Source of the DNA: Candidatus Omnitrophota bacterium
Lineage (GTDB): Bacteria > Omnitrophota > Gorgyraeia > Gygaellales > Profunditerraquicolaceae
Assembly: GCA_043823435.1 (NCBI GenBank)
Contig: JBDRAV010000013.1
Span: 1,012-65,011, forward strand
Direction of reading: 5' to 3'
Length of the DNA: 64,000 nt
A program made the translations under genes and the position numbers. This document shows positions 9,407 through 42,996 of this stretch, piece after piece (the first letter of the stretch is position 1; each line of letters opens with the position of its first letter). The notes beneath the pieces are model-generated. The model was not told the DNA's origin, did not search any database, and saw nothing but the letters and a program-made list of their open reading frames with translations.

Positions 9407-9958
9407 ATGTCAAGAATAGGAAAGAAACCTATAGTTATTCCGAAAGAAGTTAAGGTTGAGGTCATGGAAGGCGGGATGGTTTCGGTATCGGGCCCGAAAG
9501 GTAATTTGTCCTTGCGGATATCTGAGCGCATATCCGCGGAAATAAAAGATGGCCAGCTTGTTTTGATTAGAAGGTCTGATATTAAACCGGATAAGTCCCT
9601 CCACGGGCTTTATCGCGCCCTGATCTACAATATGATTAAAGGTGTCACAGAAGGATATGTAAGGGAACTTGAGATAATTGGCGTGGGATTCCGCGCCCAG
9701 GTCCAGGGGGGTAATTTAAATATGCAACTAGGTTTTTCCCATCCCGTTATTTTCTCCATTCCTGAAGGCGTAACGATAGAGACGCCCAAACATACGCAGA
9801 TCATAATAAAGGGGATCGATAAAGAGAAGGTCGGTGAGGTAGCTTCTGAGATACGCGCCGTATGTCCTCCGGAGCCATACAAAGGAAAAGGCATACGCTA
9901 TGCCGGAGAATACATAAAGAAGAAGGTCGGTAAGGCGCAGGCGACGGCATCCAAATAA
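9407..9958 (+). CDS. rplF: 50S ribosomal protein L6
   Basis: MSRIGKKPIVIPKEVKV..., 183 aa. Confidence 0.95.
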   Translation: MSRIGKKPIVIPKEVKVEVMEGGMVSVSGPKGNLSLRISERISAEIKDGQLVLIRRSDIKPDKSLHGLYRALIYNMIKGVTEGYVRELEIIGVGFRAQVQGGNLNMQLGFSHPVIFSIPEGVTIETPKHTQIIIKGIDKEKVGEVASEIRAVCPPEPYKGKGIRYAGEYIKKKVGKAQATASK

Positions 9959-10138
9959 GTGAGGACATAAGTTATGGAGTGTTATATTAATATGAATAAT
10001 AATGCAAACGACATAACTTATCTGTCCGAACTTACACCTGACATTTCTGGAATACAAATCAATTCGAGAATGTCAGGTGTTAATTCGCGCATACAACTTA
10101 CGTCGCAGTTTTTGTTCCGTAAGTTGTGCGCTCATTAA
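9959..10138 (+). repeat. Composite copy of the bipartite intergenic repeat (rplF|rplR junction)
   Basis: Canonical linker and hairpin 2: TAATTC, then GCGCATACAACTTACG (10087-10102) / CGTAAGTTGTGCGC (10118-10131), then TCATTAA. Hairpin 1 is replaced by a perfect 12-bp stem (10034-10045 / 10069-10080). The 5' block GTGAGGACATAAGTTATG is shared with 42880. Confidence 0.75.
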
Positions 10139-10141
10139 ACC

Positions 10142-10504
10142 ATGAAAGAAAAAAAAGAAGTATTAAGACTAAAAAGGCACCGCCGCATACGGATGCATAT
10201 GTACGGGAGCGAGGAACGGCCGCGCCTGATTGTGCATCGTTCCATAAGAAATTTTTCTGCCCAGATTATCGATGACACAAATAACAAGACCATTTTTTCA
10301 TTGTCTACGCAGGATAAGGAGATAAAAGAAAAATTTCCCTCTGCAGGCAACGTAAAAGCATCGATATTTTTCGCAGGGGTCTTTGCCAGGAGGGCAAAAG
10401 AAAAAGGTATCAGCAGGGTTGTCTTTGATCGTGCGGGTTATCGCTACCAAGGTAAGGTTAGGGCTTTTGCCGAGGCATTGAGAAAAGGCGGAATGGAGTT
10501 CTAG
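10142..10504 (+). CDS. rplR: 50S ribosomal protein L18
   Basis: 120 aa, ...[25 protein letters not shown].... No SD; start lies 3 nt after the repeat tail. Confidence 0.93.
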
Positions 10505-10508
10505 TAAA

Positions 10509-10991
10509 ATGCAGGAATTAAATATTGAACAGCGTCATGAATTAGTAGAAAAGGTTATTACCATTAACCGTGTAGCTAAGGTTACCAAGGGCGGCAAGAA
10601 AATGTCTTTTAGCGCCCTGGTAGTCGTCGGAGATAGCAAGGGCCGCATGGGTTTTGCTTTAGGTAAGGCAAACGAAGTCGCAGAGGCGATACGCAAGGGC
10701 CTGATTAAAGCAAAGAAAGAACTTTTTAATGTCCCGATGGAAGGGTCATCCATACCGCACGAGATAATTGGTGAATATGGCGCAGCAAAAGTACTGCTTA
10801 AGCCTGCCTCTGAAGGAACGGGTGTAATTGCTGCCGGCCCTGTGAGGGCGGTATGCGAGGCCGCGGGAATAAAGGACATTCTGACCAAATGCCTTAAGTC
10901 GAATACTCCCCTGAACGTAATAAAAGCAACCGTTGACGGGTTAAAGAATTTGAAGGTAGAGAAGAATGAAGAAGAAGATATTAAAGAATAA
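10509..10991 (+). CDS. rpsE: 30S ribosomal protein S5
   Basis: 160 aa, S5 dsRBD plus C-terminal domain ([16 protein letters not shown]...). Confidence 0.95.
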
Positions 10992-11484
10992 AGAGAATTT
11001 AAAGGCGGGGACACGTAAAGTCAACGTAGCTAAGGATTCGATCCGGCTCGATAACCTGAAAGCGCCCGCGGGCAGCCACAAACGCAAGAAGATCCTGGGC
11101 AGGGGCACAAGCTCCGGGCATGGCAAGACTTCTACGCGGGGGAGTAAAGGTCAGACCTCGCGTTCAGGAAAGAAAAAGTATCTCGGGTTTGAGGGCGGAC
11201 AGACGCCGTTGATCCGCAGGATCCCCAAGCGTGGTTTTATAAACAGGTTTAAAAAGGAATATCAGCTCGTCCATTTAGGCGATTTAAATAAGTTAAAAGA
11301 GCAGAATATAAGCCTTGATCTGTTGAAAGAAAAAGGCTTTATCAAGGATACCGAGAAGTTAGTGAAGATACTAAGCGACGGAGAGATTAAGAATCCGGTA
11401 ATCATTCAGGCCCACGCGGTTTCAAATAAAGCTTTTGAGAAAATTAAGAGCGCGGGCGGAAACGTAGAATTAATAACCAGGTAG
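10966..11484 (+). CDS. rplO: 50S ribosomal protein L15 with ~25-aa N-terminal extension
   Basis: The L15 core begins at ...[20 protein letters not shown]. The only canonical start is ATG 10966, which overlaps rpsE by 26 nt. No L30 gene lies between S5 and L15. Confidence 0.88.
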
Positions 11485-11763
11485 ACCCTCCACCCTTTTA
11501 TAGTTATTAATAAGGTGGGGGGTAAATTCGCACAAACAACTTACGTCACTATCGTTCCGTAAGTTGTGGGTATTAACCATAGCATCCTTTTATAGTTTTT
11601 AATAAGGTGGGATGTAAATTCGCCCAAACAACTTACGTCACTATCGTTCCGTAAGTTGTGGGTATTAACCATAGCATCCTTTTATAGTTTTTAATAAGGT
11701 GGGATGTAAATTCGCCCAAACAACTTACGTCACTATCGTTCCGTAAGTTGTGGGCTCATTTAT
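11485..11763 (+). repeat. Three tandem units (92-bp period) of the bipartite intergenic repeat
   Basis: Units start at 11491, 11583 and 11675. Units 2 and 3 are identical over 80 nt. Inter-unit junction is GGGTATTAACCATAG; the last unit ends GGGCTCATTTAT directly before the secY ATG. Confidence 0.9.
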
Positions 11764-13110
11764 ATGCTAAGTGCATTAGTTAATTCATTCAAGATTCCGG
11801 ACCTTAAAAGGCGGATCCTTATAACCGCTGCACTTATTACTGTTTACCGCATCGGTTGTTATGTGCCTACACCGGGTATAGACGGCGGGGCGCTGGCTGA
11901 GTTTTTCGCCCGTATAGCCAAGACCCAGGGTGGTACGCTATTCGGAATAATCAACATGTTTTCCGGAGGCGCGATGGAGAGGCTTACCATATTCGCCCTG
12001 GGGATAATGCCGTATATCTCGGCCTCGATCATCATGCAGCTTTTGACCGCGGTCATACCGGCCCTGGAGAAATTAGCCAAAGAAGGGAAGGCCGGATACG
12101 AGAAGATAAACCAATATACACGTTACGGCACGTTAGTTCTTTCGATAATCCAGTCTTTCTTTATCGCGTTGTGGCTTGAGAACCCGGCGCGTTTTGAGGG
12201 CCTAAAGATAGTCCTGTATCCAGGGTGGGGTTTCAGGATACTTACCGTGCTCACATTGACCACAGGCACGGTATTTATTATGTGGCTGGGGGAGCAGATT
12301 CAGGAGAGGGGTATAGGTAACGGTATATCGCTAGTCATTACCGCGGGGATCATTTCCAGGGTCTGGCCGGCAATGAACCAGTTGTTTATATTGATTTCAC
12401 CTTTTTCTCCCAGCCGCCGGCAGATACAGCCTTTTACTTTGCTGATTATGGCAGTCCTGCTTGTCGGAGTTGTATTCGCCGTCATCCTAATCACGCAGGG
12501 GCAAAGGAAGATACCTGTCCAGTATGCGCGCAGGATCGTGGGAAGAAAGATATTCGGAGGCCAGAGTACTTACATACCTTTAAAAGTTGATACCTCAGGC
12601 GTGATCGCTATTATTTTTGCTCAGTCCATAATCCTTTTTCCTGCGACGATAGCGTCCTTTATACCTAACCCGGCGTTTCAGAGGTGGGCGCAAGGGCTGG
12701 TCAGGGGGCACCTGCTATATACGGTAGTATATTCGTTACTCATAATATTCTTCTGTTATTTTTATACCGCTATCGTATTCAACCCCGTGGAGCTATCCGA
12801 GAACATGAAAAAGTACGGCGGTTTTATCCCGGGGATCCGTCCGGGCGCACCGACTACCGAATTCCTGGATTACGTGATGACAAGGATAACTCTGGCAGGG
12901 GCCATGTTCATTGCTTTTATCGCGATATTCCCGGATTTTCTTATGGCCTGGCTAAAAGTACCATTTCTTATAGCATCATTCTTCGGCGGCACGGGAATAC
13001 TGATCATAGTAGGCGTAATACTGGATACCTTAAAACAGATAGAATCGCACCTGCTCATGCACCATTATGAAGGGTTTATTAAATCAGGACGAATCAGGGG
13101 CAGAAGATAA
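11764..13110 (+). CDS. secY: Preprotein translocase subunit SecY
   Basis: 448 aa, multi-TM, typical SecY N-terminus, correct operon position. Confidence 0.97.
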   Translation: MLSALVNSFKIPDLKRRILITAALITVYRIGCYVPTPGIDGGALAEFFARIAKTQGGTLFGIINMFSGGAMERLTIFALGIMPYISASIIMQLLTAVIPALEKLAKEGKAGYEKINQYTRYGTLVLSIIQSFFIALWLENPARFEGLKIVLYPGWGFRILTVLTLTTGTVFIMWLGEQIQERGIGNGISLVITAGIISRVWPAMNQLFILISPFSPSRRQIQPFTLLIMAVLLVGVVFAVILITQGQRKIPVQYARRIVGRKIFGGQSTYIPLKVDTSGVIAIIFAQSIILFPATIASFIPNPAFQRWAQGLVRGHLLYTVVYSLLIIFFCYFYTAIVFNPVELSENMKKYGGFIPGIRPGAPTTEFLDYVMTRITLAGAMFIAFIAIFPDFLMAWLKVPFLIASFFGGTGILIIVGVILDTLKQIESHLLMHHYEGFIKSGRIRGRR

Positions 13111-13113
13111 GAT

Positions 13114-13758
13114 ATGAGAATAATCTTATTAGGCCCTCCGGGTGCAGGAAAAGGGACGCAGGCAAAGACGCTGGCCGAAAGGCTGGGGTTGCCGCATATA
13201 TCCACCGGAGACTTATTAAGGCAGAATGTTTCCGGGGGCACGGAGTTGGGCGTCCTGGCAAAGGATTATATGAATAAAGGGACTCTTGTCCCTGATGAGC
13301 TGGTTACCCAGATGCTTAAAGAGCGGATTAACCGGCCCGATATTAAAAATGGTTTTATCCTGGACGGCTATCCGCGCAACAAGAGCCAGGCGGCTGCATT
13401 GGACGAGATGCTTAAAGCGATGAGGTCCGGGATAGATCTAGTGATCTACCTTGACAGCAGCGAACCGGTAATTATACAGCGTCTCTCGGGGCGCCTGGTT
13501 TGCAGCTCCTGTAGTGCGAACTTTCACGTTAAGAATATGCCGCCAAAGGTGAGTATGACCTGCGATAACTGCGGCCGTAAGCTTTATCAAAGAAGCGATG
13601 ATAAAGCAGAAACTATCAGGGAGCGCCTTAAGGTATACACAGAAGCCTCATCTCCTTTGATTAAATATTATAACGATACAGGCAAACTCCACAGGCTTGC
13701 GGCAGACGGCGATAAAGACCTGGTTTTAAATAAGATCGTCGAGTTGGCAAGAAAATAA
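13114..13758 (+). CDS. adk: Adenylate kinase (zinc-lid type)
   Basis: MRIILLGPPGAGKGTQA... with lid CSSC...CDNC. Confidence 0.96.
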   Translation: MRIILLGPPGAGKGTQAKTLAERLGLPHISTGDLLRQNVSGGTELGVLAKDYMNKGTLVPDELVTQMLKERINRPDIKNGFILDGYPRNKSQAAALDEMLKAMRSGIDLVIYLDSSEPVIIQRLSGRLVCSSCSANFHVKNMPPKVSMTCDNCGRKLYQRSDDKAETIRERLKVYTEASSPLIKYYNDTGKLHRLAADGDKDLVLNKIVELARK

Positions 13759-13759
13759 G

Positions 13760-14503
13760 GTGATTCCCATAAAGTCAGAAGAAGATATAAAAATGCTGGC
13801 GAAATCAGGAAAGATCCTATCCAGAATAATGCGTAAGCTTAATAAATTTATCCGTAGCGGAATTTCTACCATAGAGATCGACCGCATAGCACAAACTATG
13901 ATGAAAGAGGAAAACTCGATATCCGCTTTTAAGGGTTATAACGGATTCCCGGCGAACATATGTGTTTCCGTAAACGAAGAAGTCGTGCACGGCATGCCGG
14001 GAGAGAGGGTCCTTGAAGACGGGGATATCGTAAGCCTGGATGTAGGAATAAATTATCAGGGTTACCTTTCCGATTCCGCTATTACCGTGGCTGTCGGACA
14101 CATAGATCCCGGGACAAGGAAACTTATCGATGTTACCAGGATGGCATTGATAGAAGGGATAAGGCAGGCACAGGTAAATAATCATTTATCGGATATATCG
14201 TATGCCATACAGTCGTATGTGGAAGGGAACGGTTTTTCCATAGTAAGGCAATTTGTGGGTCATGGCATAGGATGCGATCTGCACGAAGAGCCGCAGATAC
14301 CTAATTTCGGGAAGCCCCATGAGGGCGAAATACTAAAAAAAGGCATGGTCCTAGCTATCGAGCCTATGGTAAACATGGGTACCTGGGAATGCGAGATTAT
14401 TGATAACGGGTGGACCGCAGTAACAAAGGATCGTTCTCCTTCAGCTCATTTTGAACACACCGTAGCTATTACTGAACGCGGCCCGCGGATACTGACTAAT
14501 TAG
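13760..14503 (+). CDS. map: Methionine aminopeptidase type I
   Basis: 247 aa, GTG start, M24A motifs (HGIG, EPM, EHT). Confidence 0.95.
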   Translation: MIPIKSEEDIKMLAKSGKILSRIMRKLNKFIRSGISTIEIDRIAQTMMKEENSISAFKGYNGFPANICVSVNEEVVHGMPGERVLEDGDIVSLDVGINYQGYLSDSAITVAVGHIDPGTRKLIDVTRMALIEGIRQAQVNNHLSDISYAIQSYVEGNGFSIVRQFVGHGIGCDLHEEPQIPNFGKPHEGEILKKGMVLAIEPMVNMGTWECEIIDNGWTAVTKDRSPSAHFEHTVAITERGPRILTN

Positions 14504-14509
14504 TATATT

Positions 14510-14728
14510 ATGGCCAAAGAAGAATTAATCGAGACCGAAGGGAAAGTAATTGAGGCATTGCCCAATGCCATGTTCAGAGTGGAACTGGAAAACGGACACC
14601 AGGTACTTGCGCACGTATCAGGGAAGATGCGCATGCATTTTATCAGAATATTGCCCGGGGACAAGGTAAAATTAGAACTTTCTCCTTACGATTTAACCAG
14701 GGGAAGAATCACCTTCAGGTCTAAATAA
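14510..14728 (+). CDS. infA: Translation initiation factor IF-1
   Basis: 72 aa, [30 protein letters not shown].... Confidence 0.97.
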
Positions 14729-14745
14729 GCGGGGGATATGAATTT

Positions 14746-14859
14746 ATGAAAGTTAAAGCGTCGGTAAGAAAGATATGCGACAGATGCAAGATCATTAAAA
14801 GAAAAGGCATCGTTAGGGTAATTTGCTCTAAGCCTAAACATAAACAGAGGCAGGGCTAA
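14746..14859 (+). CDS. rpmJ: 50S ribosomal protein L36
   Basis: Below the ORF-track cutoff. My own translation is [37 protein letters not shown], in the expected infA-rpmJ-rpsM position. Confidence 0.93.
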
Positions 14860-14878
14860 AAAACATAAGCGAGGGAAA

Positions 14879-15298
14879 ATGCCAAGAATCCTAGGTGTAG
14901 ATATACCTAAAGAAAAGAGAATCGATATTGCTTTAACTTATTTGTACGGGATAGGCAGGCATGTTTCAAGGATAATCCTTAAAGATGCCGGCATTGATCC
15001 CGCTAAGCGCGCAAAAGACCTGAACGAAGAAGAGGTTTCTTACGTAACCAATGCTATACAGAAAAGCGGTTATAAGGTCGAGGGCGACCTGCGCCGTGAG
15101 ATATCCCAGAATATAAAGAGATTGATGGATATCGGCTCCTGGCGGGGGATGCGCCATAAAAAGGGCCTTCCCGTAAGGGGTCAGCGCACGCGTACTAACG
15201 CAAGGACCAGAAAAGGTCCGCGTAAGGGCGGCATGACGGTAATAAAGAAGCCTACCGCAGATAAGAAGGCAGCACCTGCAGCTAAAAAAGGGGGTTAA
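14879..15298 (+). CDS. rpsM: 30S ribosomal protein S13
   Basis: [15 protein letters not shown]..., 139 aa. Confidence 0.96.
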
Positions 15299-15303
15299 TA
15301 TAA

Positions 15304-15693
15304 ATGGCCGTAAAAGATAAAGCAAAAAAGAAAAAGATAGCCAAAGGCATAACCAGCGGAATAGCGCATATCCAAGCAAGTTTTAATAATACCATAATCA
15401 CAATAACCGATAAACAGGGCAACGCGCTGGTTTGGTCTGCACCCGGTATCGTAGGTTACAGCGGGTCCAAAAAGTCCACTCCTTTCGCAGCACAGATAGC
15501 CGCCACCGATGCCGCAAGGAAGGCTAAAGAGATAGGGATTAAGGAAGTGGCTGTCCAGGTTAAAGGGCCGGGGTCGGGTCGGGAATCGGCGATCAGGGCC
15601 TTGCAGGCATCAGGCCTTACCATTACCTGTATCAAGGATGTAACCCCTATACCGCATAACGGTTGCCGCGCAAAAAAGAGAAGGAGAGTATAA
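15304..15693 (+). CDS. rpsK: 30S ribosomal protein S11
   Basis: 129 aa, ...[18 protein letters not shown].... Confidence 0.96.
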
Positions 15694-15698
15694 TATAA

Positions 15699-16334: not shown

Positions 16335-16377
16335 TTCGTAGTTGATAGTTCATTGTTCATAGTTCATAACTGAACAA
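16332..16377 (+). repeat. Short direct heptamer repeats (TAGTTCG/TAGTTGA/TAGTTCA...) ending in a hairpin
   Basis: The rpsD-rpoA spacer reads TAGTTCGTAGTTGATAGTTCATTGTTCATAGTTCATAACTGAACAA. TTGTTCA (16353-59) pairs with TGAACAA (16371-77). Confidence 0.5.
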
Positions 16378-17384: not shown

Positions 17385-17953
17385 GACATGCCAAGTCCAG
17401 ATTACAGTTAAACCGTTTTACAAGCTGGCGCAATGCAACGCTGGTAAGCCTGGCCAGGAGTCTGATTATACACCAGAGGATCAAGACAACAAAGGCGAGA
17501 GCCAAAGCGGTAAAACCAGTGGTAGAAAAGCTTGTATCCTTAGGCAAGAAGAATTCACTTTTTGCCAAAAGGCAGGCCTTTCGCATTTTAGGCGATCACA
17601 GATTAGTAAGCCTACTTTTTAGCGATATAGCTCCCCGATTTACCAGTAGAACCGGCGGTTACACCAGGATGATCAATTTCGGGTCGAGGCGGGGGGATAA
17701 CGCGCAGTTGGTAATACTGGCATTGACTGAAATCAAAGAAAAGGCCCGCAGGAAGCCCAAACCTAAAGTGCACAAGGAAACACAAAAGCCCGAAGCACAA
17801 GAACGGGAACCTGCTATAGAGCAACCGCCGGAAGAAAAGAAACCCAAATCCGAGACAGCGGTTAAAGAGAAACCGCCTATTACCAAGAAACCCACGAAGA
17901 AATTCTTAGGAGGTTTACGAGGGATATTCAGAAAAAAGAGCGACTCTTTATAA
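17381..17953 (+). CDS. rplQ: 50S ribosomal protein L17 with ~70-aa K/P/E-rich C-terminal extension
   Basis: MRHAKSRLQLNR.... The L17 core ends near residue 118. ATGA overlap with rpoA. Confidence 0.92.
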   Translation: MRHAKSRLQLNRFTSWRNATLVSLARSLIIHQRIKTTKARAKAVKPVVEKLVSLGKKNSLFAKRQAFRILGDHRLVSLLFSDIAPRFTSRTGGYTRMINFGSRRGDNAQLVILALTEIKEKARRKPKPKVHKETQKPEAQEREPAIEQPPEEKKPKSETAVKEKPPITKKPTKKFLGGLRGIFRKKSDSL

Positions 17954-20502: not shown

Positions 20503-20527
20503 CTGCACGAATGTCAAGGAGGTCAAT

Positions 20528-22071: not shown

Positions 22072-22160
22072 CACCCTATATAGTTCTTAATAAGGTAGGG
22101 TGTAAATTCGCGCATACAACTTAGCTTCGCTTATCGCTCGCTAAGTTGTGCGCTCATTTA
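22072..22160 (+). repeat. Single complete unit of the bipartite intergenic repeat (89 nt)
   Basis: ACACCCTA...TAGGGTGT, then TAAATTC, then GCGCATACAACTTAGC...GCTAAGTTGTGCGC, then TCATTTA. It fills exactly the gap between the leuD-like TAA and the icd-like ATG. Confidence 0.87.
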
Positions 22161-23246
22161 ATGGCACATAAAATAACTTTAATACCGGGTGATGGGATCG
22201 GGCCGGAAGTAACGGAAGCGGCAAGAAGGTGCATAGAAGCAACCGGAGTCAATGTATCATGGAATGAGGTTATTGCAGGGCAGGATGCCATCGATAAATA
22301 CGGCGAGATACTCCCGGGAAGCGTTATTGAATCGATAAAAAGGAATAAGGTGGCCTTAAAGGGGCCTATTGTCACTCCTATCGCAGGAGGATTCCGCTCG
22401 GTGAATGTAGCTATAAGGCATGCCCTTGACTTATACGCCTGTGTCAGGCCGGCAAAATCCTATCCCGGAGTGAAGAGCCTTTATAAAGATATTGACCTGG
22501 TAGTTGTGCGTGAAAACAGCGAAGATCTATATGCGGGTATAGAATTTGAGGAGGGTAGGCCCGAGACGAAAGAATTGATCAATAAAATAGAAGAGTATAC
22601 GCATAAAAATATACGTCTGGATTCCGGGATTTCAATCAAGCCTATCTCGCTATATGCTTCAGAGCGGATAGTGCGTTTTGCTTTTGAGTATGCCTTGAAA
22701 TATAACCGCAAGAAAGTCACCGCCGTGCATAAGGCGAATATTATGAAATTTACGGATGGATTGTTTTTGAAGACGGCCCGCAGGGTCGCTGGTGATTACG
22801 CGGGCAGGGTGGCCTTTGAGGAAGCAATCGTGGATAATATGTCGATGCAACTTGTGCAGAAGCCGGAAAACTACGACGTATTAGTGCTTCCTAATTTATA
22901 CGGAGACATAATTTCCGATCTATGTGCCGGATTGGTAGGGGGGCTTGGAGTTGCACCCGGGGCCAACATCGGAGACGATATAGCCGTATTTGAAGCTGTA
23001 CACGGGTCAGCGCCTAAATATAAAGGCCAAAACAAAGTCAATCCCGTAGCAATGATATTGTCTGGGATCCTTATGCTCAGGTACATAAAAGAGGATAGTG
23101 CCGCCGAGAGGTTGGAAGCAGCGGTAAAAAAAGTATTGGCTCAAGGTAAATCGGTAACATACGATTTAAAAGTAAGCCGCGATGACCCGACCAGCGTAGG
23201 AACGCAGGAGATGGCTAATGCCATTATCCAAGAGATAAAAAGATAG
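22161..23246 (+). CDS. Isocitrate/isopropylmalate dehydrogenase family protein
   Basis: The ORF-track TTG 22146 lies inside the repeat. ATG 22161 gives MAHKITLIPGDGIGPEV... (361 aa). Substrate unresolved. Confidence 0.82.
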   Translation: MAHKITLIPGDGIGPEVTEAARRCIEATGVNVSWNEVIAGQDAIDKYGEILPGSVIESIKRNKVALKGPIVTPIAGGFRSVNVAIRHALDLYACVRPAKSYPGVKSLYKDIDLVVVRENSEDLYAGIEFEEGRPETKELINKIEEYTHKNIRLDSGISIKPISLYASERIVRFAFEYALKYNRKKVTAVHKANIMKFTDGLFLKTARRVAGDYAGRVAFEEAIVDNMSMQLVQKPENYDVLVLPNLYGDIISDLCAGLVGGLGVAPGANIGDDIAVFEAVHGSAPKYKGQNKVNPVAMILSGILMLRYIKEDSAAERLEAAVKKVLAQGKSVTYDLKVSRDDPTSVGTQEMANAIIQEIKR

Positions 23247-30940: not shown

Positions 30941-31447
30941 ATGTTGGTATTGTTTCTGATCATAGCCGGAATATTATTAAGATTGGCGCCGCACGCGCCT
31001 AATTTTACTCCCGTGGCTGCGATAGCATTGTTCGGGGGAGTATACCTTAGAAAGAAATACGCGCTCATAGTCCCGCTCGCACTGATGATCATCAGTGACT
31101 TGGTGATCGGATTACACGACGTATTCATTTTTACCTGGGGAGGATTTGCCCTCGTCACGCTGATCGGGCTCTGGCTGAAGAATCGCAAGAGCGTACTTCG
31201 CACGGCATCGGCTTCCCTGGTTTCTTCGTTTATCTTTTATATATTTACCAACTTCGGCGTATGGATGATGGGTTATTACCCGCGTAATTTTAAAGGGCTT
31301 ATTGATTGCTACATAATGGCGTTACCATTTTTACGCAGCTTTACTTTAGCGACACTGTTCTATGCGGCCGTCTTCTTCGGAATATACGAATTGGCCGCCC
31401 ATTTTGTCAAAGACACAAAGTTATCTAAGGTTCTTTTAACGAATTAA
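30941..31447 (+). CDS. Hypothetical polytopic membrane protein (about 5 predicted TM segments; possibly ECF-S/vitamin-transporter-like)
   Basis: 168 aa, hydrophobic throughout, located between cobO and the B12 riboswitch. Function not established. Confidence 0.5.
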   Translation: MLVLFLIIAGILLRLAPHAPNFTPVAAIALFGGVYLRKKYALIVPLALMIISDLVIGLHDVFIFTWGGFALVTLIGLWLKNRKSVLRTASASLVSSFIFYIFTNFGVWMMGYYPRNFKGLIDCYIMALPFLRSFTLATLFYAAVFFGIYELAAHFVKDTKLSKVLLTN

Positions 31448-31453
31448 ATATAG

Positions 31454-31599
31454 TTATACCGGATAGGGAAGGCCGTAAAAGCGGCCGCAGTCCCGCTGCT
31501 GTGAAAGGGGACGAAAGCCCTCAAAAGCCACTGGCACAAGATGCCGGGAAGGCAGGGTGAGTAGGAGGATCCTTTAAGCCAGAAAACCTGCCTGTATAA
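31454..31599 (+). promoter_or_regulatory. Cobalamin riboswitch aptamer
   Basis: AGGGAAGGCCGTAAAAGCGGCC..CCCGCTGCTGT (from 31465), GCCACTGG (31527-34), CCGGGAAGGC (31544-53), B12 box AAGCCAGAAAACCTGCC (31576-92), P1 TTATACCGG/CCTGTATAA. Confidence 0.87.
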
Positions 31600-31647
31600 T
31601 GAGGAAAGTGCTTCGCGGATAAGGGCCAAGATAGAATCAGGGTGCAG

Positions 31648-34419: not shown

Positions 34420-35115
34420 ATGTTTTCCGATAAAGCATTCTCCATAGCCTTGACCTTATCCCTGATCACGCACGGGGTTATCTTCTTCCAGAGTAATAAA
34501 TTAAACCTCAATATTTTCCCCAAAAAAGAAAATGAACCACTTTTGGAATTAAGTTACGTAAAGGTTGCCAAAAATGACCCTGTTCTGGAGGAACGCGTGA
34601 AGGCGGTCCCGGACAGGAGCGAACCTCTTCTGAGGCTATCATCAAAGATCGCTAACGCCAAAGTAACGCCTCCCCCGGCCATAAATAAGGAGGGGATCTT
34701 CAACAAAAACGGGGAAGATATCTCCCTGAAAGATTTTTTTGTCAAGCCCGTTTTTGTGAAACCGGATATCATCTCAGTAAAAAAGAAGATTTCGCTTCCT
34801 CCGATAGACCTCGATAAGATCGATAACCCTTTGTATATAAGTTATTATCAGATAGTCCGAGAGAAGATCAGGCGGGCGGCCTACCAGAATTATACCCGTA
34901 CCGAAACGGGAGAGGTCTACCTTTCTTTTCTGATATCCCAGGATGGCTCCCTAAAAACCATTAAATTCATAGAAGAAAAGTCTTCCCCCAGCTCCTATCT
35001 AAATCAAACCGCGTTAAAGAGCATAAAGGACGCATCTCCCTTCCCCAGCTTCCCCAAGGAGCTGGATTACCCCCAGCTATCTTTCAATGTAGTAATCTCA
35101 TTTGAAGTGGAATAA
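34420..35115 (+). CDS. TonB-family energy transducer (C-terminal TonB domain)
   Basis: 231 aa, N-terminal TM, proline-containing linker, C-terminal ...GEVYLSFLISQDGSL...PFPSFP.... Confidence 0.72.
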   Translation: MFSDKAFSIALTLSLITHGVIFFQSNKLNLNIFPKKENEPLLELSYVKVAKNDPVLEERVKAVPDRSEPLLRLSSKIANAKVTPPPAINKEGIFNKNGEDISLKDFFVKPVFVKPDIISVKKKISLPPIDLDKIDNPLYISYYQIVREKIRRAAYQNYTRTETGEVYLSFLISQDGSLKTIKFIEEKSSPSSYLNQTALKSIKDASPFPSFPKELDYPQLSFNVVISFEVE

Positions 35116-35320
35116 GTTCTCTAGCACTGCAGCTTAAGTCGTTCTGTACTCGTAAGTTGTGCGCTCTAAACCTATCACCCTTTTATAGTTATAATAAGGT
35201 GGGGTGTAAATTCATCCGTTGCTCTATTAAGTAGCCGCGGATGATTCCGAAGCGAAGCGAGGAACTAGCCCATACAACTTACTCGCACTATCGTGTTCGT
35301 AAGTTGTGCGCTCATTTAAA
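35116..35320 (+). repeat. Bipartite intergenic repeat: one degenerate partial unit plus one full unit with a ~56-nt insertion in the linker
   Basis: 35151-35166 CGTAAGTTGTGCGCTC with junction TAAACCTAT. Hairpin 1 plus TAAATTC at 35176-35212. Insert at 35213-35268. CCCATACAACTTAC...GTAAGTTGTGCGCTCATTTAA at 35269-35319. Confidence 0.8.
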
Positions 35321-37279: not shown

Positions 37280-37283
37280 TAAG

Positions 37284-37634
37284 ATGGATGAACTCAACAA
37301 GAATATAGACGAAAGCTGGAAAGAGACGGTAGATAAGGAAAAAGCTGGCCTGGAAAAAGAAGGCAAATCCATGCCTAGAGAGCCGGATTTCGCCTTTTTT
37401 ATCACAACCCTCTCCGTACAGGCATCTGTCGACCTCGGATATCTACCTAATCCCGCAACGAACAAAAAAGAAGAGAACCTTACGCAGGCAAAATTCCTTA
37501 TCGATACCCTGGGTATGCTGAAGGAAAAGACAAAAGGAAATCTAAGCCCGGAAGAAGCTAATTATATGGAAAATATACTATATGAATTAAGGATGCAATA
37601 CATAGCGAAGACCGAAAAGAAGGAGGAGAAATGA
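37284..37634 (+). CDS. DUF1844-like protein
   Basis: 116 aa, ...PDFAFFITTLSVQASVDLG.... Family assignment is from memory. Confidence 0.55.
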   Translation: MDELNKNIDESWKETVDKEKAGLEKEGKSMPREPDFAFFITTLSVQASVDLGYLPNPATNKKEENLTQAKFLIDTLGMLKEKTKGNLSPEEANYMENILYELRMQYIAKTEKKEEK

Positions 37635-37786
37635 TAGATAAAGAATTGCTGGAGATCCTGGCGTGCCCTGCCTGCAAGGGGGATGTGGAACTGAAAGATA
37701 ATAAAATAGTCTGCAAGAAATGCATGAAGAAATATCCCATAAAAGACGGCATCCCGATAATGCTGATTGATGAAGCAGAAGGGTAA
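37631..37786 (+). CDS. Trm112/YcaR-family small zinc-ribbon protein
   Basis: Below the ORF-track cutoff. MIDKELLEILACPACKGDVELKDNKIVCKKCMKKYPIKDGIPIMLIDEAEG*. ATGA overlap with the upstream gene. Confidence 0.75.
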   Translation: MIDKELLEILACPACKGDVELKDNKIVCKKCMKKYPIKDGIPIMLIDEAEG

Positions 37787-37819
37787 TATATGTCCTCCTG
37801 GTATTTGGACTAAAAATAT

Positions 37820-38251
37820 ATGAAGAAAATATTAGTAATACACGGGCCGAATCTGAATCTCCTGGGTAAAAGAGAGCCTGATATCTACGGCAGGGTGACC
37901 CTGCAGCAGATAAACAGTGAACTAAAAAAGGCTGCCAGGAAGAGAAAGGTAAGCCTGACCATAAAACAGTCTAACCATGAAGGGGAGATAGTTGACCTCA
38001 TCGGCAGGATAAAGAATAAATACGATGCCCTCCTCATAAATCCCGCTGCCTATACCCATACGAGCGTCGCAATAAGAGATGCTATTGCCGCAAACAGCGT
38101 ATTGGCCGTAGAGGTGCACCTTTCCAATATATACTCCAGGGAAGAATTCAGGCACAAATCCCTTATCAGCCCCGTGGCAAAAGGAACAATAATGGGTTTC
38201 GGCCCAAAGAGCTATACCTTGGGGCTGGAAGCTTTGATAGACCTACTTTAA
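37820..38251 (+). CDS. aroQ: 3-dehydroquinate dehydratase type II
   Basis: [24 protein letters not shown]..., 143 aa. Confidence 0.93.
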
Positions 38252-38260
38252 AGGTGCGGA

Positions 38261-39322
38261 GTGAATTTACGCATACGCAAGATATATGCCGGGTTATCCA
38301 AAAACGGCATCGACGGTCTGATTGTAAATTCCGCGGCAAATATAGCTTATCTCACCAATTACACCAGCCGTGACTCATATCTATTAATATCAAGAAAATC
38401 AAATATCTATTTTACCGACTCAAGATATATTGAGGAGGCCAGGAAGGGTCTTAGAGGTGTTGCCTCGGTAAAGAAGATAAGCGGCTGCGCCTTCAAAATA
38501 ATAGCCAGGACCTGCTCTGGGTTCGGGCTTAAACGTATCGGATTTGAAGAAAACTATCTCGCCTGCACCGAGCATAGAAATATGAGGCGCGAATTGAACA
38601 AGAAAGCAGAATTAGTGCCTGCCTGCGGAATGGTAGAAAAGTTCAGGGAAATAAAGGGCGCCGAAGAAGTGGAGAAGATAAGAGAGGCGGTCCGGATAAC
38701 AACGGAGGCATTCAGGTTTATCGAAAGATTCATATCCTGCGGGAGGAAGGAAGCCGAAATAGCGGGAGAATTAGAGCGTTTTATAAGGTATAACGGCGCA
38801 CACTCTTCGGCATTCGACATAATCGTGGCCTCAGGGCCAAATTCAAGCCTTCCGCATCACTTGACCTCGCAAAGGAAACTCAGGGAAAACGAACATGTAT
38901 TGATCGACATGGGTGTTGAGTATAAGGGGTATAAATCTGACTTGACAAGGGTTTTCTTTTTGGGTAAAATAAACCCTGCTGTAGCAAAGATATACGAAAT
39001 AGTAGGCACGGCAAGTCGTAATGCGATAAACCAGATAAAACCAGCTGTTAATAAAAAAAAGGTCGATAAAGCTGCCCGCCAATATATAACGCGAAAAGGG
39101 TACGGCGGGTTTTTTGATCATAGTTTAGGGCACGGGATAGGCCTAGAGGTTCACGAAGAGCCGCGCATATCTTCCGGGTCAGAGGGGGATTTAATGCCAG
39201 GAATGGTATTTACTGTTGAACCGGCAATATATCTGCCGGGTAGATTCGGAATAAGAATAGAGGATATGGTTCTGGTTACCGGGAAAGGCAATGAGGTATT
39301 AAGTGGCGCTCTCGATAAATGA
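38261..39322 (+). CDS. pepP: Xaa-Pro aminopeptidase (M24B)
   Basis: 353 aa, creatinase-like N-domain plus M24 motifs (HGIGLEVHE, EDMV). GTG start. Confidence 0.85.
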   Translation: MNLRIRKIYAGLSKNGIDGLIVNSAANIAYLTNYTSRDSYLLISRKSNIYFTDSRYIEEARKGLRGVASVKKISGCAFKIIARTCSGFGLKRIGFEENYLACTEHRNMRRELNKKAELVPACGMVEKFREIKGAEEVEKIREAVRITTEAFRFIERFISCGRKEAEIAGELERFIRYNGAHSSAFDIIVASGPNSSLPHHLTSQRKLRENEHVLIDMGVEYKGYKSDLTRVFFLGKINPAVAKIYEIVGTASRNAINQIKPAVNKKKVDKAARQYITRKGYGGFFDHSLGHGIGLEVHEEPRISSGSEGDLMPGMVFTVEPAIYLPGRFGIRIEDMVLVTGKGNEVLSGALDK

Positions 39323-39869
39323 CGTAAAATCAGGCTTGACTATTATAGTTGACAATGATGTATATATGGTTATAGATACCCAGCACGTGAAGCCAGGAAA
39401 AGGCGCTGCTTTTGTGCGCGCAAAATTAAGAAACCTTAAAAACAGCAACATCCAGGAGAAAACATTCAGGGGGGACGAAAAGATAGAAGCGGCCTTCGTG
39501 GAGGAAAGAAAACTCCAATATCTGTATTCTTCGGGAGATATGTATCATTTCATGGACCAGGATAATTTCGAAGAGATAGCTATACCCGTTGAGACGCTTG
39601 CGGATAAAAAAAAATTCCTGAAAGATAACCTTGAGGTCAGCGGTTATTTCTATAAAAATGAAACCTTGAGCGTAAGCCTTCCTAATTTTATCGATTTCAT
39701 TATCGTTCATACCGAACCGGGGATAAAAGGCGACACGGCTAAAAGTGGCACGAAATCGGCAGAAATAGAATCCGGAGCCATTATCCAGGTCCCGCTTTTT
39801 ATAAATACCGGGGATAAGATCAGAGTGGATGCCCGGACAGGAGAATATATAGAGAGGTCGTATTCATAA
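39303..39869 (+). CDS. efp: Elongation factor P
   Basis: 188 aa, ...HVKPGKGAAFVRAKLRNL... (modifiable Lys loop). GTG start overlapping pepP. Confidence 0.94.
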   Translation: MALSINDVKSGLTIIVDNDVYMVIDTQHVKPGKGAAFVRAKLRNLKNSNIQEKTFRGDEKIEAAFVEERKLQYLYSSGDMYHFMDQDNFEEIAIPVETLADKKKFLKDNLEVSGYFYKNETLSVSLPNFIDFIIVHTEPGIKGDTAKSGTKSAEIESGAIIQVPLFINTGDKIRVDARTGEYIERSYS

Positions 39870-39879
39870 AGGATGGGTG

Positions 39880-39928
39880 TCCCGTTAGAAACGGTATTCT
39901 AACGGGATAACCGGGAGGATTCTAACGG
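39880..39928 (+). other. Hairpin with a duplicated 3' arm in the efp-accB spacer
   Basis: TCCCGTTAGAA (39880-90) pairs with TTCTAACGGGA (39897-907). TTCTAACGG recurs at 39920-28, flanking the accB SD GGGAGG (39913-18). Confidence 0.45.
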
Positions 39929-39929
39929 A

Positions 39930-40388
39930 ATGAATATAAAAGAAATAAAAGAAATGATCAATCTTATGAATGAGAATGGTCTGGTAGAGCTGGAGATAGA
40001 AAAGGACGGGATGCGCGTCAGATTGAAGAAGGTAGGCCAGGGGCAGGAGGCATCCGCGGGCCAGACTATAGTTATCGAGAAATCGGGAGCGCCTGCGTTC
40101 CAGACCAGAGGAGAGTCTTTGGAAGCCCTTGAGAAATCAGCTTCAAATACCATTGAAATCAAGGCCCCCATGGTAGGGACTTTTTACCGCGCGCCTTCCC
40201 CAGAGGTTCCGCCATATGTTGAAAAAGGCCAGGTAATCGAACCGGGACAGGTGATCTGTATCATAGAAGCAATGAAATTAATGAATGAAATAAAGTCTGA
40301 AATAAAGGGCAGGATCCTGGAGATCCTTGTCGATAATACTGAACCCGTAGAATTCGGACAACCTATATACCTGATCGAACCCGTCTAA
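39930..40388 (+). CDS. accB: Biotin carboxyl carrier protein
   Basis: 152 aa, EAMKLMNEI biotinylation motif. Confidence 0.93.
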   Translation: MNIKEIKEMINLMNENGLVELEIEKDGMRVRLKKVGQGQEASAGQTIVIEKSGAPAFQTRGESLEALEKSASNTIEIKAPMVGTFYRAPSPEVPPYVEKGQVIEPGQVICIIEAMKLMNEIKSEIKGRILEILVDNTEPVEFGQPIYLIEPV

Positions 40389-40521
40389 ATTTAAAACTTT
40401 GCCTCGCATTCAAAATGCTTGGCAGCAAGCGAGGTTAATTCGCGCAGATAACTTACTCACGCTTACCTGCTTATCTGATGAAAGGGGCAGGCAGGTGGTT
40501 CGTAGGTAATGTGCTCATAAA
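40389..40521 (+). repeat. Degenerate/rearranged copy of the bipartite intergenic repeat
   Basis: Divergent hairpin 1 (CCTCGC...GCGAGG), conserved TTAATTCGCGC, CAGATAACTTAC...GTAGGTAATGTGC, then TCATAAA just before the accC ATG. Confidence 0.6.
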
Positions 40522-41892
40522 ATGTTCTCAAAAGTACTTATTGCCAACCGGGGAGAAATAGCCCTAAGAGTGATCCGCGCCTGCCGTGAATTAGGTATCC
40601 GTACCGTAGCCGTATATTCCGAAGCAGATAGAAATTCACTGCATACCCGCTTTGCCGATGAGGCGATCTGTATCGGCAAGGCACAGAGCAGCAACAGCTA
40701 CCTGAATATCCCCGCGATCATAAGCGCAGCAGAGATCACCGATGTAGATGCGATACACCCCGGTTACGGTTTTCTCGCGGAAAACCCGCATTTTGCGGAG
40801 ATCTGCGAATCATGCAAGATAACCTTTATCGGCCCTACCTCTGATAATATCCGGCTGATGGGGGATAAAATGGCTGCCCGCGCCAATATGCAGAAAACAG
40901 GCCTGCCTATAGTCCCCGGAAGCATATCCATAGTCAAGAGCAAGGAAGAAGCACTTAAGACCTCCAAGAAGATAGGCTATCCCGTAATCATAAAAGCAGC
41001 GGCAGGCGGCGGCGGCAAGGGGATGCGCATCGCCCATAATGACATAAGCCTTATCAGCGGCCTGATGACAGCACAGGCAGAAGCCGAATCGAATTTCGGT
41101 AACTCCAACGTATATATTGAAAAATATATCGAAAGACCGCGTCATATCGAGATCCAGATCCTGGCGGATAAACACGGGCACATTGTACACCTTGGAGAAA
41201 GGGACTGCAGTATCCAGAGAAGGCATCAGAAATTACTGGAAGAGGCACCGTCTCCGGCAGTAGATGCAAGATTGCGTAAACGCCTCGGAGAGCTCGCCGT
41301 AAAAGGCGCCAAGACCATACATTATATAGGGGCAGGGACCATAGAATTCCTGTTAGACTCACACAATAATTTTTATTTTATGGAGATGAACACAAGGATA
41401 CAGGTCGAACACCCCGTTACCGAAATGGTTACCGGGATAGACCTGATAAAGGAACAGGTCCGCGTGGCAGGAGGAGAAAGGCTGCGTTTTCGGCAGGATG
41501 ATATTAAAGTAAAAGGGGCAGCCATAGAGTGCCGCATAAATGCCGAAGATTTTGAAAACAACTTCATGCCTTCTCCGGGAAAGATCGAGACCCTTAACCT
41601 CCCCGGGGGGCCGGGCGTACGCGTGGACACGCATATTTATAGCGGATATGAAGTACCGACGTTTTATGATTCCCTGTTAGCCAAACTGATAACCTATGCT
41701 GATTCCCGGCAAGAGGCAATACAGATCATGCGGCGCGCGCTAATGGAATTTCATATCTCCCCGATAAAAACAACCATCCCTTTTCATATTCGCCTCATGG
41801 ATAATCCTCTCTTTATAAAAGGGGAGATATCGACTCATTTAGTCCAGGAGATATTGAAAGAGGAGTGCTTTGAGCCGTCGGCAAAAGAGTAA
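40522..41892 (+). CDS. accC: Biotin carboxylase
   Basis: [20 protein letters not shown]..., 456 aa, ATP-grasp. Confidence 0.96.
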
Positions 41893-41895
41893 GGC

Positions 41896-42270
41896 ATGAA
41901 TATAACCGCAGGAACAATGCATAGAGAAGAATCAGAGACCGATCTAGGTAATATCAAGATACATAAAAATGTTATCGCTTCGATCGCATCTCTGGCGGCA
42001 TCCGAAATTGACGGCGTAAAAAAGATAGGAGGGAGTTTCAAAAGCGGGCTGTTAGAATTAATCGGAAAAAAGGCCCAGATGGCGATAAAGGTCGATATCG
42101 ATAAGAACGAGGAGATAAGACTTGAAGTCCCCCTGGTTATAAAATACGGTTTTAATATACCTGATATATCCAACAGGGTCCAGGAGAATATCCGCAATGC
42201 ACTGGAAAAAATGACAAGCCTGTCCGTAAAATATATAAATATAAATGTCCAAAGTATAGAGAGGGGGTAA
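41896..42270 (+). CDS. Asp23/Gls24-family envelope stress protein
   Basis: 124 aa, ...IKIHKNVIASIASLAASEIDGV.... Confidence 0.78.
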   Translation: MNITAGTMHREESETDLGNIKIHKNVIASIASLAASEIDGVKKIGGSFKSGLLELIGKKAQMAIKVDIDKNEEIRLEVPLVIKYGFNIPDISNRVQENIRNALEKMTSLSVKYININVQSIERG

Positions 42271-42273
42271 TAA

Positions 42274-42879
42274 ATGCGCATATTCACGGTTTTAGGGATA
42301 CTGTTCTACGCCTCGGTCCTTATTCTTATCGGAATGATCCTGATAATATTTTCTCTAGACGTATTGCAGCCTCAGGATATAAATACTATACTTGTGTATG
42401 TGCAGCAGAGCCTCAATTCAAAGGTTATCATGGGGCTATCCGGGTTTTTATTGATAGTGGTAAGTTTTTCTTTTGCGCAGTTAATCCTGGGACGTTTTCA
42501 GCGCGAGAGGACGATCGCCTTCACAACAGCTTCGGGAGAAGTGACCATTGCTCTTTCGGCCGTTGAGGACCTAATAAAGCGCCTGGCGGGACTGATTCCC
42601 GAAATAAAAGAATTGAGGCCGGATGTGATAGCGAGTAAAAAGGGTATTATTGTAGATATCAGGGTGGTGTTAAGGTCCGAGGCGAATATCCCTGATCTGA
42701 CCGCCCGGCTTCAGGAGATAATCAGGTCAAAAATACAGGAGATACTCGGGCTGGAAGAACAGATAGTGATCAAAATCCACGTAGTAAAGATCATTTCAAT
42801 CCACGACGCGGACAGAAAAATAAAAGAACAGGTAAAGGAAGAACCTGCCATACCATTTAGCGGATACGGCAGGGCATAA
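42274..42879 (+). CDS. Membrane protein, AmaP-like (Asp23 membrane anchor)
   Basis: 201 aa, two N-terminal TM segments, adjacent to the Asp23 gene. Assignment by context and memory. Confidence 0.5.
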   Translation: MRIFTVLGILFYASVLILIGMILIIFSLDVLQPQDINTILVYVQQSLNSKVIMGLSGFLLIVVSFSFAQLILGRFQRERTIAFTTASGEVTIALSAVEDLIKRLAGLIPEIKELRPDVIASKKGIIVDIRVVLRSEANIPDLTARLQEIIRSKIQEILGLEEQIVIKIHVVKIISIHDADRKIKEQVKEEPAIPFSGYGRA

Positions 42880-42996
42880 GTGAGGCCATAAGTTATGTGT
42901 ATATTCATCCTTTTATAGCTATTAATAAGGTGGGATGTAAATTCGCGCTTATAACTTACTCATACAGTCGCATTCGTAAGTTATGCGCTCATTTAA
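42880..42996 (+). repeat. Complete unit of the bipartite intergenic repeat with a 5' GTGAGGCCATAAGTTATG block
   Basis: CATCC..GGGATG, then TAAATTC, then GCGCTTATAACTTAC (42945-59) / GTAAGTTATGCGC (42976-88), then TCATTTAA. The pfk SD follows directly. Confidence 0.87.

Follow-up and report, generated by a model that had tools for sequence, protein, structure and literature searches.

The window, a 64,000-nt (64-kb) stretch of Candidatus Omnitrophota contig JBDRAV010000013.1, carries a family of imperfect hairpins located at the narrow junctions between neighboring genes. We interpret these, with a probability of about 0.6, as modular, non-autonomous interspersed hairpin repeats that were inserted between tightly packed genes, whose bracketing TAA trinucleotides are the ends of the hairpins themselves, and which would disperse as single strands and be tolerated by their host. 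An earlier reading based on the letters of the window alone (hereafter the sequence-only reading) had described six of these loci as repeats bracketed by TAA, and attributed the pattern either to a 3-nt target duplication or to insertion 3′ of a short target. The feature that it described is real, and it rightly suspected both insertion and a 3′ TAA internal to the element, while the duplication idea fails. The repeats are present far above chance expectation: the 16-mer TAAGTTRTGSGCTCAT, searched with ≤2 mismatches, matched the window 7 times against 0.08 expected. A covariance model of the core hairpin (R1) identified 9 units above 40 bits, 2 of them inverted (2753-2816 and 9954-10038), and overall 7 junctions of the 64-kb window carry 12 hairpin units (Table 1). 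Across the loci collected, R1 yielded 141 matches in 988 kb; loci from relatives are designated below by L-numbers.

The family is modular: a core is preceded by a variable small hairpin and, in some copies, by an inverted hairpin resembling the core. The core, C, is an imperfect hairpin of ~65 nt with the consensus GGGn T-N-AAT / TC / GCGC / A-n / A-y-AACTTAyG...variable tip...CrTAAGTT-r-T / GCGC / TC / ATT-N′-A A, i.e., from the base up, an outer stem (T-N-AAT/ATT-N′-A), a TC/TC mismatch, a GCGC/GCGC segment, a 2-nt bulge, an upper stem (AyAACTTAyG/CrTAAGTTrT), and a variable tip. We evaluated this structure on an alignment of 58 core copies (A1), for which the search pattern had partly determined the 3′ arm but not the 5′ arm: 98.2% of the stem cells were paired, and double-sided changes were found in 79 cells compared to 26.5 ± 4.3 in shuffled alignments, with 0 of 500 shuffles reaching 79. 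Covariation was seen at columns 6:67 (U-A 25, A-U 13, C-G 10), 14:59 (G-C 41, C-G 15), 19:56 (U-A 32, C-G 25), and 26:49 (C-G 40, U-A 15). C is usually preceded by a small hairpin ending in a G-run, which in the window is mostly of one type, B (CAyCCTTTTATAG..TAATAAGGTGGG). Composites often also include, upstream of C, the inverted C-like hairpin C′, which reads TAA-R-T / GA / GGnC...GnCC / GA / A-Y-TTA and covaries at the R/Y position of its outer stem. The block at the rplF–rplR junction folds as three abutting hairpins (9956-10034, 10035-10079, and 10080-10138; −68.9 kcal/mol, z = −9.0), so that hairpin 1 opens with the three bases of the rplF stop codon and hairpin 3 closes with those of the tail TAA. 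Two other functions considered for parts of the element were discarded: a split Shine–Dalgarno (SD) sequence in the G-run upstream of the core was set aside because in every class the run makes up the small hairpin's 3′ arm, and a conserved small open reading frame (ORF) ending at the tail stop was ruled out because the stop frames differ between ATTAAA and ATTTAA variants.

We assign both bracketing TAAs to the outermost pairs of the terminal hairpins; they do not represent a target-site duplication. The 3′ TAA is the base of the core stem, ATT-N′-A(A), in which N′ was complementary to the head nucleotide N in 62 of 77 copies (head N:tail N′ pairs of T:A 27, A:T 21, C:G 14, and G:C 0). Since the tail complements the head, the relation between the two is inverted, as expected for a stem, and is not a direct repeat, so the caveat of the sequence-only reading that the 3′ TAA could simply be part of the element was right. 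Tails read ATTAAA, ATTTAA, or ATTGAA/G; 73 of the 77 include a stop codon, and the sole stem variant that would carry none was never observed. For 61 elements, tail type was independent of the upstream stop codon, with TGA-reading tails found downstream of TAA (9), TGA (3), and TAG (3) stops, which argues against any duplication of TAA. We take the 5′ TAA as the first three bases of the C′ hairpin (TAAGT...ACTTA), in which it pairs with the TTA of ACTTA. TAA preceded each of the 16 left ends of GTGA(G/A)G type and was the in-frame stop of a long ORF in 12 of the 14 assessable cases; the non-stop TAAs were found in L080, where it overlaps the CAT of an opposite-strand start codon, and in L034, where it ends no gene.

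Upstream genes commonly stop at the TAA of the element or target, or at the TGA within GTGAGG. For instance, the rpsJ stop is the TGA of GTGAGG in L225, which has a C′-type hairpin at the orthologous site, and the TGA of ATGAGC in L079, where the end of rpsJ reads ATTAAA-TGA-GCAC. The rplE stop is found in ATGAGGCCA-TAA-CTTACGG in L119 and is the TGA of a TTGACA hairpin in L074, while rpoA of L120 stops at the head TAATTC. That elements start immediately after the TAA, as first described, reflects a choice of boundary, as the stop codon is inside the repeat in at least four loci: at 2759-61 within the R1 match 2753-2816, at 9956-58 within the R1 match 9954-10038, at 42877-79 within a repeated arm (42876-97), and at 35113-15 as the head of a degenerate copy. 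The count of five TAAs among six upstream stops was correct but statistically unremarkable (p ~0.18), with TAA closing 51 of the window's 91 ORFs. The further proposal that the preferred sites are the stop codons of coupled genes holds in part, although many copies are found in 5′ leaders far from any stop.

Comparison with related genomes confirmed that the elements are secondary insertions into tight junctions. Spacers in the S10-spc-alpha operon normally range from −30 to +30 nt, and expansions of 65–290 nt are found at differing junctions in different relatives. In the closest relative found, L225 (L18 83% identical, same gene order), the rplF–rplR junction is empty and reads ...TTCGAAA TAA CC ATG AAAGAAAAAAAAGAA, whereas the filled junction of the window reads ...ATCCAAA TAA GTGAGGAC...GCGCTCATTAAA CC ATG AAAGAAAAAAAAGAA. 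The insert missing in L225 is thus 181 nt long (9959-10139), with a placement ambiguity of ≤2 nt (AA). A duplicated TAA would predict CATTAA-CC at its right end, but the window has CATTAAA-CC, one A more, and this A is a position of the element kept in at least 90% of copies. The ancestral junction proposed from the sequence alone, TAA-ACC-ATG, was accordingly nearly right, with one A too many relative to the TAA-CC-ATG of L225. In four further relatives, the two genes are likewise separated by 2 nt or overlap as TAATG.

Other junctions are similarly polymorphic. The rplO–secY junction is empty in L120 (TAA-ATG), is an overlap in L123, L125, and L074, and holds a single unit in L118 and L225. 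The B hairpin of L225 at this site is orthologous to that of the window, but the interior of its C comes from another subfamily, as it does for the rpsJ–rplC hairpin of the same relative, which suggests that copies have been replaced or converted. At accB–accC, a full composite in L097 contrasts with 14-nt remnants in L229 (TAA-TAATTCCATTAAGT-ATG, i.e., head and tail with the interior lost) and L230 (TAA-ATTCGCACTTATAA-ATG, a head remnant), and L231 retains TTAATTCGCA fused to the −35 box of rpsU. At the aconitase–T2SSE junction orthologous to 20503-27, where the window keeps only one arm of the middle hairpin, the composite of L225 is complete. The junction at 42877..42998 is filled in L016 and empty in L229, L230, and L231, while in L232 a composite takes the place of the entire SD-containing spacer between pfk and a SIS gene. 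Precise excision restoring the target was not encountered in these comparisons, which are between species and not between population alleles, and partial remnants were found instead (TAATTCCATTAAGT, ATTCGCACTTATAA, and window 20503-27). To judge from these alignments, copies are gained as clean blocks without TAA duplication and lost through internal deletions that leave footprints.

Several smaller observations were made in spacers of the window and its relatives. In L230 and L231, a remnant TTGACA serves as the −35 box of rpsU. Positions 9391-9406 of the window and the rpsH–rplF spacers of L118 and L120 (16–17 nt) resemble a collapsed C′ (TAA-GCGAGGACATAAGTTT-ATG and TAA-GTGAGGACACCGAACTT-ATG), with a GAGG at SD distance; elements may thus decay into ordinary SD spacers, or spacers of this kind may be the origin of C′. 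Unrelated short repeats were also found in the operon spacers of relatives, namely a ACGCAGAT type in L118 (rpsN–rpsH, ~1256-1389) and L121 (~1218-1301), and a CACGAAT/ATTCGTG type in L227 (rpsH–rplF and the rplP region).

Next, we evaluated the placement of the elements relative to the downstream gene. This gene was on the same strand for 96 of 118 elements and on the opposite strand for 22, several of the latter being pseudo-symmetric composites that face, with their opposite end, a start codon on the other strand. A clear downstream ORF was present for 59 elements. Its start codon was located −2 to +3 nt from the end of the model in 29 of them (e.g., CATTAAATG and CATTTAATG, which lack an SD); in the remaining 30 the distance was 5–21 nt, in most of these with the SD directly behind the tail (CATTNAAGGAGG...ATG). 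The constant neighbor of the element is thus a downstream SD or ATG. The tail also abuts the SD or ATG in long, promoter-led 5′ leaders (L082, L052, and L103), and crowding alone can therefore not account for this abutment. Downstream genes include those for PFK, DnaK, RpoC, AccC, GAPDH, RRF, EF-Tu, enolase, trigger factor, S7, S10, L5, and L31, along with S14, L10, L11, L27, S20, S16, L17, AcpP, and SecY as read by eye from N-termini; many of these are highly expressed housekeeping genes.

The repeat family is specific to Omnitrophota, widespread there, and apparently undescribed. In a distribution scan restricted to one genome per species, >117 loci with the 16-mer were returned, and the same core was found in about 50 Omnitrophota genomes. 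The full hairpin was present in 72 loci, which were labeled Omnitrophota or Omnitrophica (including Ca. Zapsychrus) or bore uninformative or other-phylum labels (uncultured Planctomycetia/-ales, Planctomycetota, an unnamed bacterium, and one Neomarinimicrobiota bin). The 45 loci without a full hairpin were other phyla with chance 16-mers, or partial copies. The window itself encodes an L18 100% identical to a protein from a Candidatus Omnitrophota metagenome-assembled genome (MAG). Several loop subfamilies co-occur within one genome (e.g., UBA1562), and the same subfamilies recur across species. The element is present in L069, even though its EF-Tu is only 74% identical to that of the window, and absent from 50 kb of the relatives L229, L230, and L231. 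At the Rfam gathering score, the window contained only a cobalamin riboswitch and a tRNA, and a permissive scan of 9900-11800 returned sub-threshold miRNA-hairpin noise, so that no Rfam family is matched; the literature searched contained no account of these repeats. Spread by viruses was likewise rejected, as 0 of 27 viral-contig matches to the 16-mer carry the 5′ arm of the hairpin. In practice, the 16-mer sharply marks Omnitrophota contigs: every locus with the full hairpin was labeled either as Omnitrophota or uninformatively, counting in bins assigned to Planctomycetia and one assigned to Neomarinimicrobiota.

Within the window, all 12 stop and tail positions of the sequence-only reading were correct when the sequence was re-read. 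Each upstream stop terminates its ORF (TAA at 9956-58, 22069-71, 35113-15, 40386-88, and 42877-79; TAG at 11482-84), and the corresponding tail trinucleotides are TAA at 10136-38, 22159-61, 35317-19, 40518-20, and 42994-96, and TAT at 11761-63. Downstream starts were likewise right (ATG at 10142, 11764, 22161, 40522, and 43007), and Pfam upheld the gene names (L6–L18, L15–SecY, Aconitase_C–Iso_dh, TonB_C–S21, AccB–AccC, and Asp23-family–PFK).

Table 1 Hairpin units and remnants at gene junctions of the window.
Feature	Coordinates	Strand	Evidence and remarks
Inverted core hairpin, rpsJ–rplC spacer	2753..2816	-	R1 60.9 bits; rpsJ stop 2759-61 in its tail
C′ hairpin (TAAGT/GA/GGAC...GTCC/GA/ACTTA)	9956..10034	+	R1 minus-strand match 9954-10038, 40.2 bits; RNA fold
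Small variable middle hairpin (CACCTGACATT...AATGTCAGGTG)	10035..10079	+	RNA fold; inverted repeat I2
Core hairpin C, tail CATTAAA	10080..10139	+	R1 77.8 bits at 10076-10141
Three tandem 92-nt units (B + core hairpin each), rplO–secY spacer	11485..11763	+	Tandem repeat finder; R1
Probable deletion remnant, only 3′ arm of middle hairpin (ATGTCAAGG)	20503..20527	+	Suggested by alignment with L225
B + core hairpin, Aconitase_C-like–Iso_dh junction	22072..22161	+	R1 75.4 bits at 22099-22163
Degenerate core, B hairpin, insert, and intact core, tonB-like–rpsU junction	35113..35319	+	R1; repeat families D4, D5, D8
Divergent copy, accB–accC: small hairpin + core, long apical insert, tail CATAAA	40389..40521	+	R1 25.2 bits at 40438-518
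Half C′ arm TAAGTGAGGCCATAAGTTATG (begins with stop codon), B, and core hairpin	42877..42998	+	Repeat family D15; R1 72.7 bits at 42934-98

The C′ hairpin whose first three bases are the rplF stop has the same architecture in L097, L120, L118, and L232. The rplO–secY array has a period of 92 nt, 2.8 copies, and a 97% match according to the tandem repeat finder, with R1 matches at 11519-79, 11611-71, and 11703-65. The tail TAA of the element ending at 22161 overlaps the ATG at that position. At the tonB-like–rpsU junction, R1 scored 13.5 bits at 35124-66, a weak match, and 45.9 bits at 35257-321; the degenerate head TAAGTTC provides the stop of the tonB-like gene, the rpsU promoter is located downstream, and the S21 identity of the product was confirmed. 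The tail of the element upstream of pfk is followed by the SD GGAGG. The mechanical ORF call for pfk begins at an ATG within the core hairpin (42983, GTTATGCGC), in frame with the real start at 43007.

A few other features of the repeats and of the window were recorded. The core tail GCGCUCAUUAAA (e.g., window 10128-10139) resembles the boxA antitermination motif GCUCUUUAA; this tail is drawn here as paired, and the relevance of the resemblance is doubtful. A common middle hairpin, CCCTTGACATC...GATGTCAAGGG, is found at rplE–rpsN of L074 and in composites of L066, L120, and L225, and together with the head TAAATT it yields TTGACA-16 nt-TAAATT, a sigma-70-like promoter directed outward into the core hairpin. 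At 5880-6450 of L045, a long spacer of low complexity (CAGACGACAGA and AAACAAAAAC runs) precedes three core units in tandem, and L115, from the same MAG, has a similar cluster. Elsewhere in the window, we identified a cobalamin riboswitch (31413-31609, 95.6 bits), a tRNA gene (46929-46999), and three tandem 45-nt coding repeats rich in Pro/Glu/Lys codons within an ORF (56218-56352), with a weaker copy at 17786-17830.

As for how the repeats arise and persist, we propose that they are dispersed by an enzyme that recognizes a folded single strand. An HUH/Y1-like activity would be suggested by hairpin ends with conserved irregularities (the TC/TC mismatches and 2-nt bulge), by the absence of a duplication, by the constant TAA of composites, and by the strand bias. 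Once transcribed, the stacked hairpins would hold the upstream stop and the downstream start near each other, and their tails, by shutting two reading frames within the last 20 nt, may close stray frames. Insertion between coupled genes with high expression (see PMC12548453 for a review of translational coupling) would thereby be tolerated or even beneficial, allowing copies to persist. A 228-aa Y1_Tnp gene is found beside rpsU in L230 (209-895; family also in L233-L240), and among NCBIfam models it comes closest to that of the REP-associated tyrosine transposase, scoring 73.5 bits where the cut-off is 80. This family is widespread in Omnitrophota (58–82% identity), and its copies, many of them on ~1-kb contigs, have their own flanking inverted repeat, CAAGACGCTKTTGMTAAC...GTTATCAACAGCGTCTTG, preceded by a conserved GCGTTAGATT...ACGTCTATTA motif. 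GGTTGC and GATATT runs were also seen beside Y1 genes.

Several results weigh against this interpretation. No mobilizing enzyme could be linked to the repeat: in the one Y1 family surveyed, 0 of 6 Y1_Tnp copies were flanked by C and no R1 match was found in their flanks, the inverted repeat CAAGACGCTKTTGMTAAC is missing from the window and from all C-bearing loci, and tblastn with IS200/IS608 TnpA queries found no Y1 gene in ~1 Mb of element-bearing loci. Conservation of the core over such deep divergence (e.g., in L069) is also unusual for a selfish repeat. Signals of RNA and of single-stranded DNA are not separable here, with all genes of the window on the strand of positive GC skew, and they conflict: in 78 of 88 copies the better fold is that of the reverse complement, as a GA/GA mismatch is more stable than UC/UC, while G-U pairs favor the sense strand 71:32. 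Finally, some seemingly empty sites are secondary losses, so that the direction of change is sometimes ambiguous.

Among the alternatives, a first one takes the left TAA as the target and left cleavage site and not as a piece of the element, with a Y1 transposase inserting hairpin-ended single-stranded DNA 3′ of TAA without duplication, so that the element would often land at stop codons of coupled genes. Elements of the IS200/IS605 family indeed transpose as single strands and insert 3′ of a short target. The 181-nt insert is positioned cleanly and directly 3′ of a native TAA when compared to L225, with the C-terminus encoded upstream unchanged, the 16 of 16 GTGAGG-type left ends following TAA agree with this option of the sequence-only reading, and Y1_Tnp genes are common in Omnitrophota. 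The lack of terminal duplication, the subterminal hairpins at both ends, the constant 5′ flank of composites, and the strand bias also match IS200/IS605 elements, and pairing of the tail at the foot of the stem resembles the pairing of guide and cleavage site in IS608. However, the TAA of composites also pairs with a TTA inside the element and may thus be internal, and the left and right hairpins are mutually inverted, whereas IS200/IS605 ends share one orientation. Single units lack a constant left flank, and many are far from any TAA stop. In addition, no tnpA is linked to the elements, the examined Y1 genes are flanked by other repeats and not by a C hairpin, and losses are imprecise, leaving footprints where precise excision would be expected. 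We consider this scenario possible for composites, but rather unlikely overall.

Alternatively, the repeats could be primarily a putative host cis-acting mRNA element, intercistronic or in 5′ leaders, through which a bound phylum-specific protein or RNase would control processing, stability, or translation start of the next gene, with copying being secondary. This would fit a core kept across deep divergence with compensatory changes, tails that abut the SD or ATG even in leaders with space to spare (L082, L052, and L103), the bimodal start distances, and the frequent location upstream of highly expressed housekeeping genes. It would also be consistent with the essential genes secY, rplR, and rplQ beginning right after the tail with no intervening SD, and with successive cistrons that each have one copy (L101, L077, and L089). 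Yet one and the same junction can be filled in one close relative and empty in another, copies may be in tandem, inverted, or truncated, footprints occur, and the absence of the element from 50 kb of L229, L230, and L231 indicates that no gene strictly needs it. A primary role of this kind appears possible but rather unlikely. A still more tentative reading would make the repeat a phylum-wide mobile junction cassette, i.e., a structured mRNA element with its own stops at both ends that docks at the next start and that would act on the coupling, processing, or stability of mRNAs from highly expressed operons, preserving them by folding out of the way or controlling them by recruitment of a phylum-specific protein or RNase.

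A classical MITE (a miniature transposable element with inverted repeats) mobilized by a DDE transposase with a 3-bp TAA duplication, the first option of the sequence-only reading, is very improbable and already contradicted. The TAA...TAA pattern at 5 of 6 window loci and in several composites elsewhere, along with the inverted-repeat-like outer 20 nt of composites, had made it attractive. Bacterial MITEs with TA/TNA duplications (Correia/NEMIS, RUP, and IS5-/IS630-derived elements) also share a size of 60–280 nt, inverted ends, modular variants, and insertion in operons without breaking them. However, the tail is the complement of the head (T:A, A:T, C:G) and not a direct copy, so that the ends covary as a stem, TGA tails are found downstream of TAA as well as TGA and TAG stops, the empty site of L225 would require an extra 1-nt indel, and the duplication tested for here was not found. 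No autonomous partner was seen in any locus examined, nor any minus/plus pair of R1 matches enclosing a transposase in the collected loci; the one candidate for an autonomous element, a minus/plus pair 1.1 kb apart in L048, merely flanks rpoA. Least credible of all are integron attC-like sites or intrinsic terminators and attenuators: stable, imperfect palindromes with a variable center, AAC...GTT triplets, and co-directional placement after stops would suit them, but the elements lie inside essential operons, the flanking genes are syntenic S10-spc-alpha core genes in the same order in all relatives and not cassettes, no intI gene was seen, the stem is followed by CATTAAA or CATTGAAGGAGG tails without a T-run, and a scan found 3 terminator-like sites against 2.0 expected, none of them the core hairpin.

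The closest known kind of element is the repetitive extragenic palindromic (REP) sequence and its REPIN doublets, from which the present repeats differ in placement, in depth of conservation, and in the lack of a flanking REP-associated tyrosine transposase (RAYT) gene. Like REPs, bacterial interspersed mosaic elements (BIMEs), and REPIN-RAYT systems (PMC3116915 and PMC3337134), they are short, extragenic, multi-copy palindromes. They can similarly occur as inverted doublets with a spacer that form hairpins in single-stranded DNA or mRNA (here C′-middle-C, at window 9956-10138 and in L097, L120, L118, L232, and L225), as singlets, or as tandem clusters, with several subfamilies per genome, long persistence in a lineage, and no target duplication. 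REPINs are, however, reported to be placed randomly in extragenic space (PMC3116915), whereas the present elements abut the next SD or ATG (29 of 59 within −2 to +3 nt) and are mostly co-oriented with the next gene (96 of 118). Their core is conserved phylum-wide, while REPs are conserved within a species or genus; they lack a GTAG-type 5′ motif, and they do not flank the only Y1 family found.

A second resemblance is to the mycobacterial interspersed repetitive units (MIRUs) of Mycobacterium tuberculosis, which are intercistronic tandem units with ends overlapping the flanking stop and start codons. MIRUs share with the present repeats a location between cistrons, co-orientation, terminal stop/start overlap, and a variable tandem number (compare the three 92-nt units of rplO–secY). 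MIRUs, however, are read as small ORFs, whereas here the hairpin defines the element, no frame is conserved since tail stops fall in different frames, and the sequences are unrelated; the stop/start overlap is thus a functional resemblance only. Finally, the plastid intercistronic expression element (IEE; PMC2230500) and the RNase III sites of phage T7 are also structured intercistronic RNAs located just before the next ribosome-binding site, with both neighbors able to be expressed. Those are single functional sites shown experimentally, whereas the present elements are repeated and polymorphic, with a putative function.

Omnitrophota are uncultured, and genomes are the sole handle on their biology. 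This repeat is among the most conserved non-coding sequences of the phylum and is located within its most essential operons. At a practical level, it explains assembly breaks and gene-start miscalls such as the ATG at 42983, and automatic annotation may stretch N-termini into the repeat. If the repeats are merely tolerated, they would illustrate how insertions between genes coupled in translation can be accommodated by a compact genome, with hairpins that fold out and a stop and start that are supplied or kept adjacent. If they are used, they would represent a new dispersed mRNA signal, and, should the tentative junction-cassette reading be true, Omnitrophota would possess a dispersed system of post-transcriptional punctuation spread by transposition.

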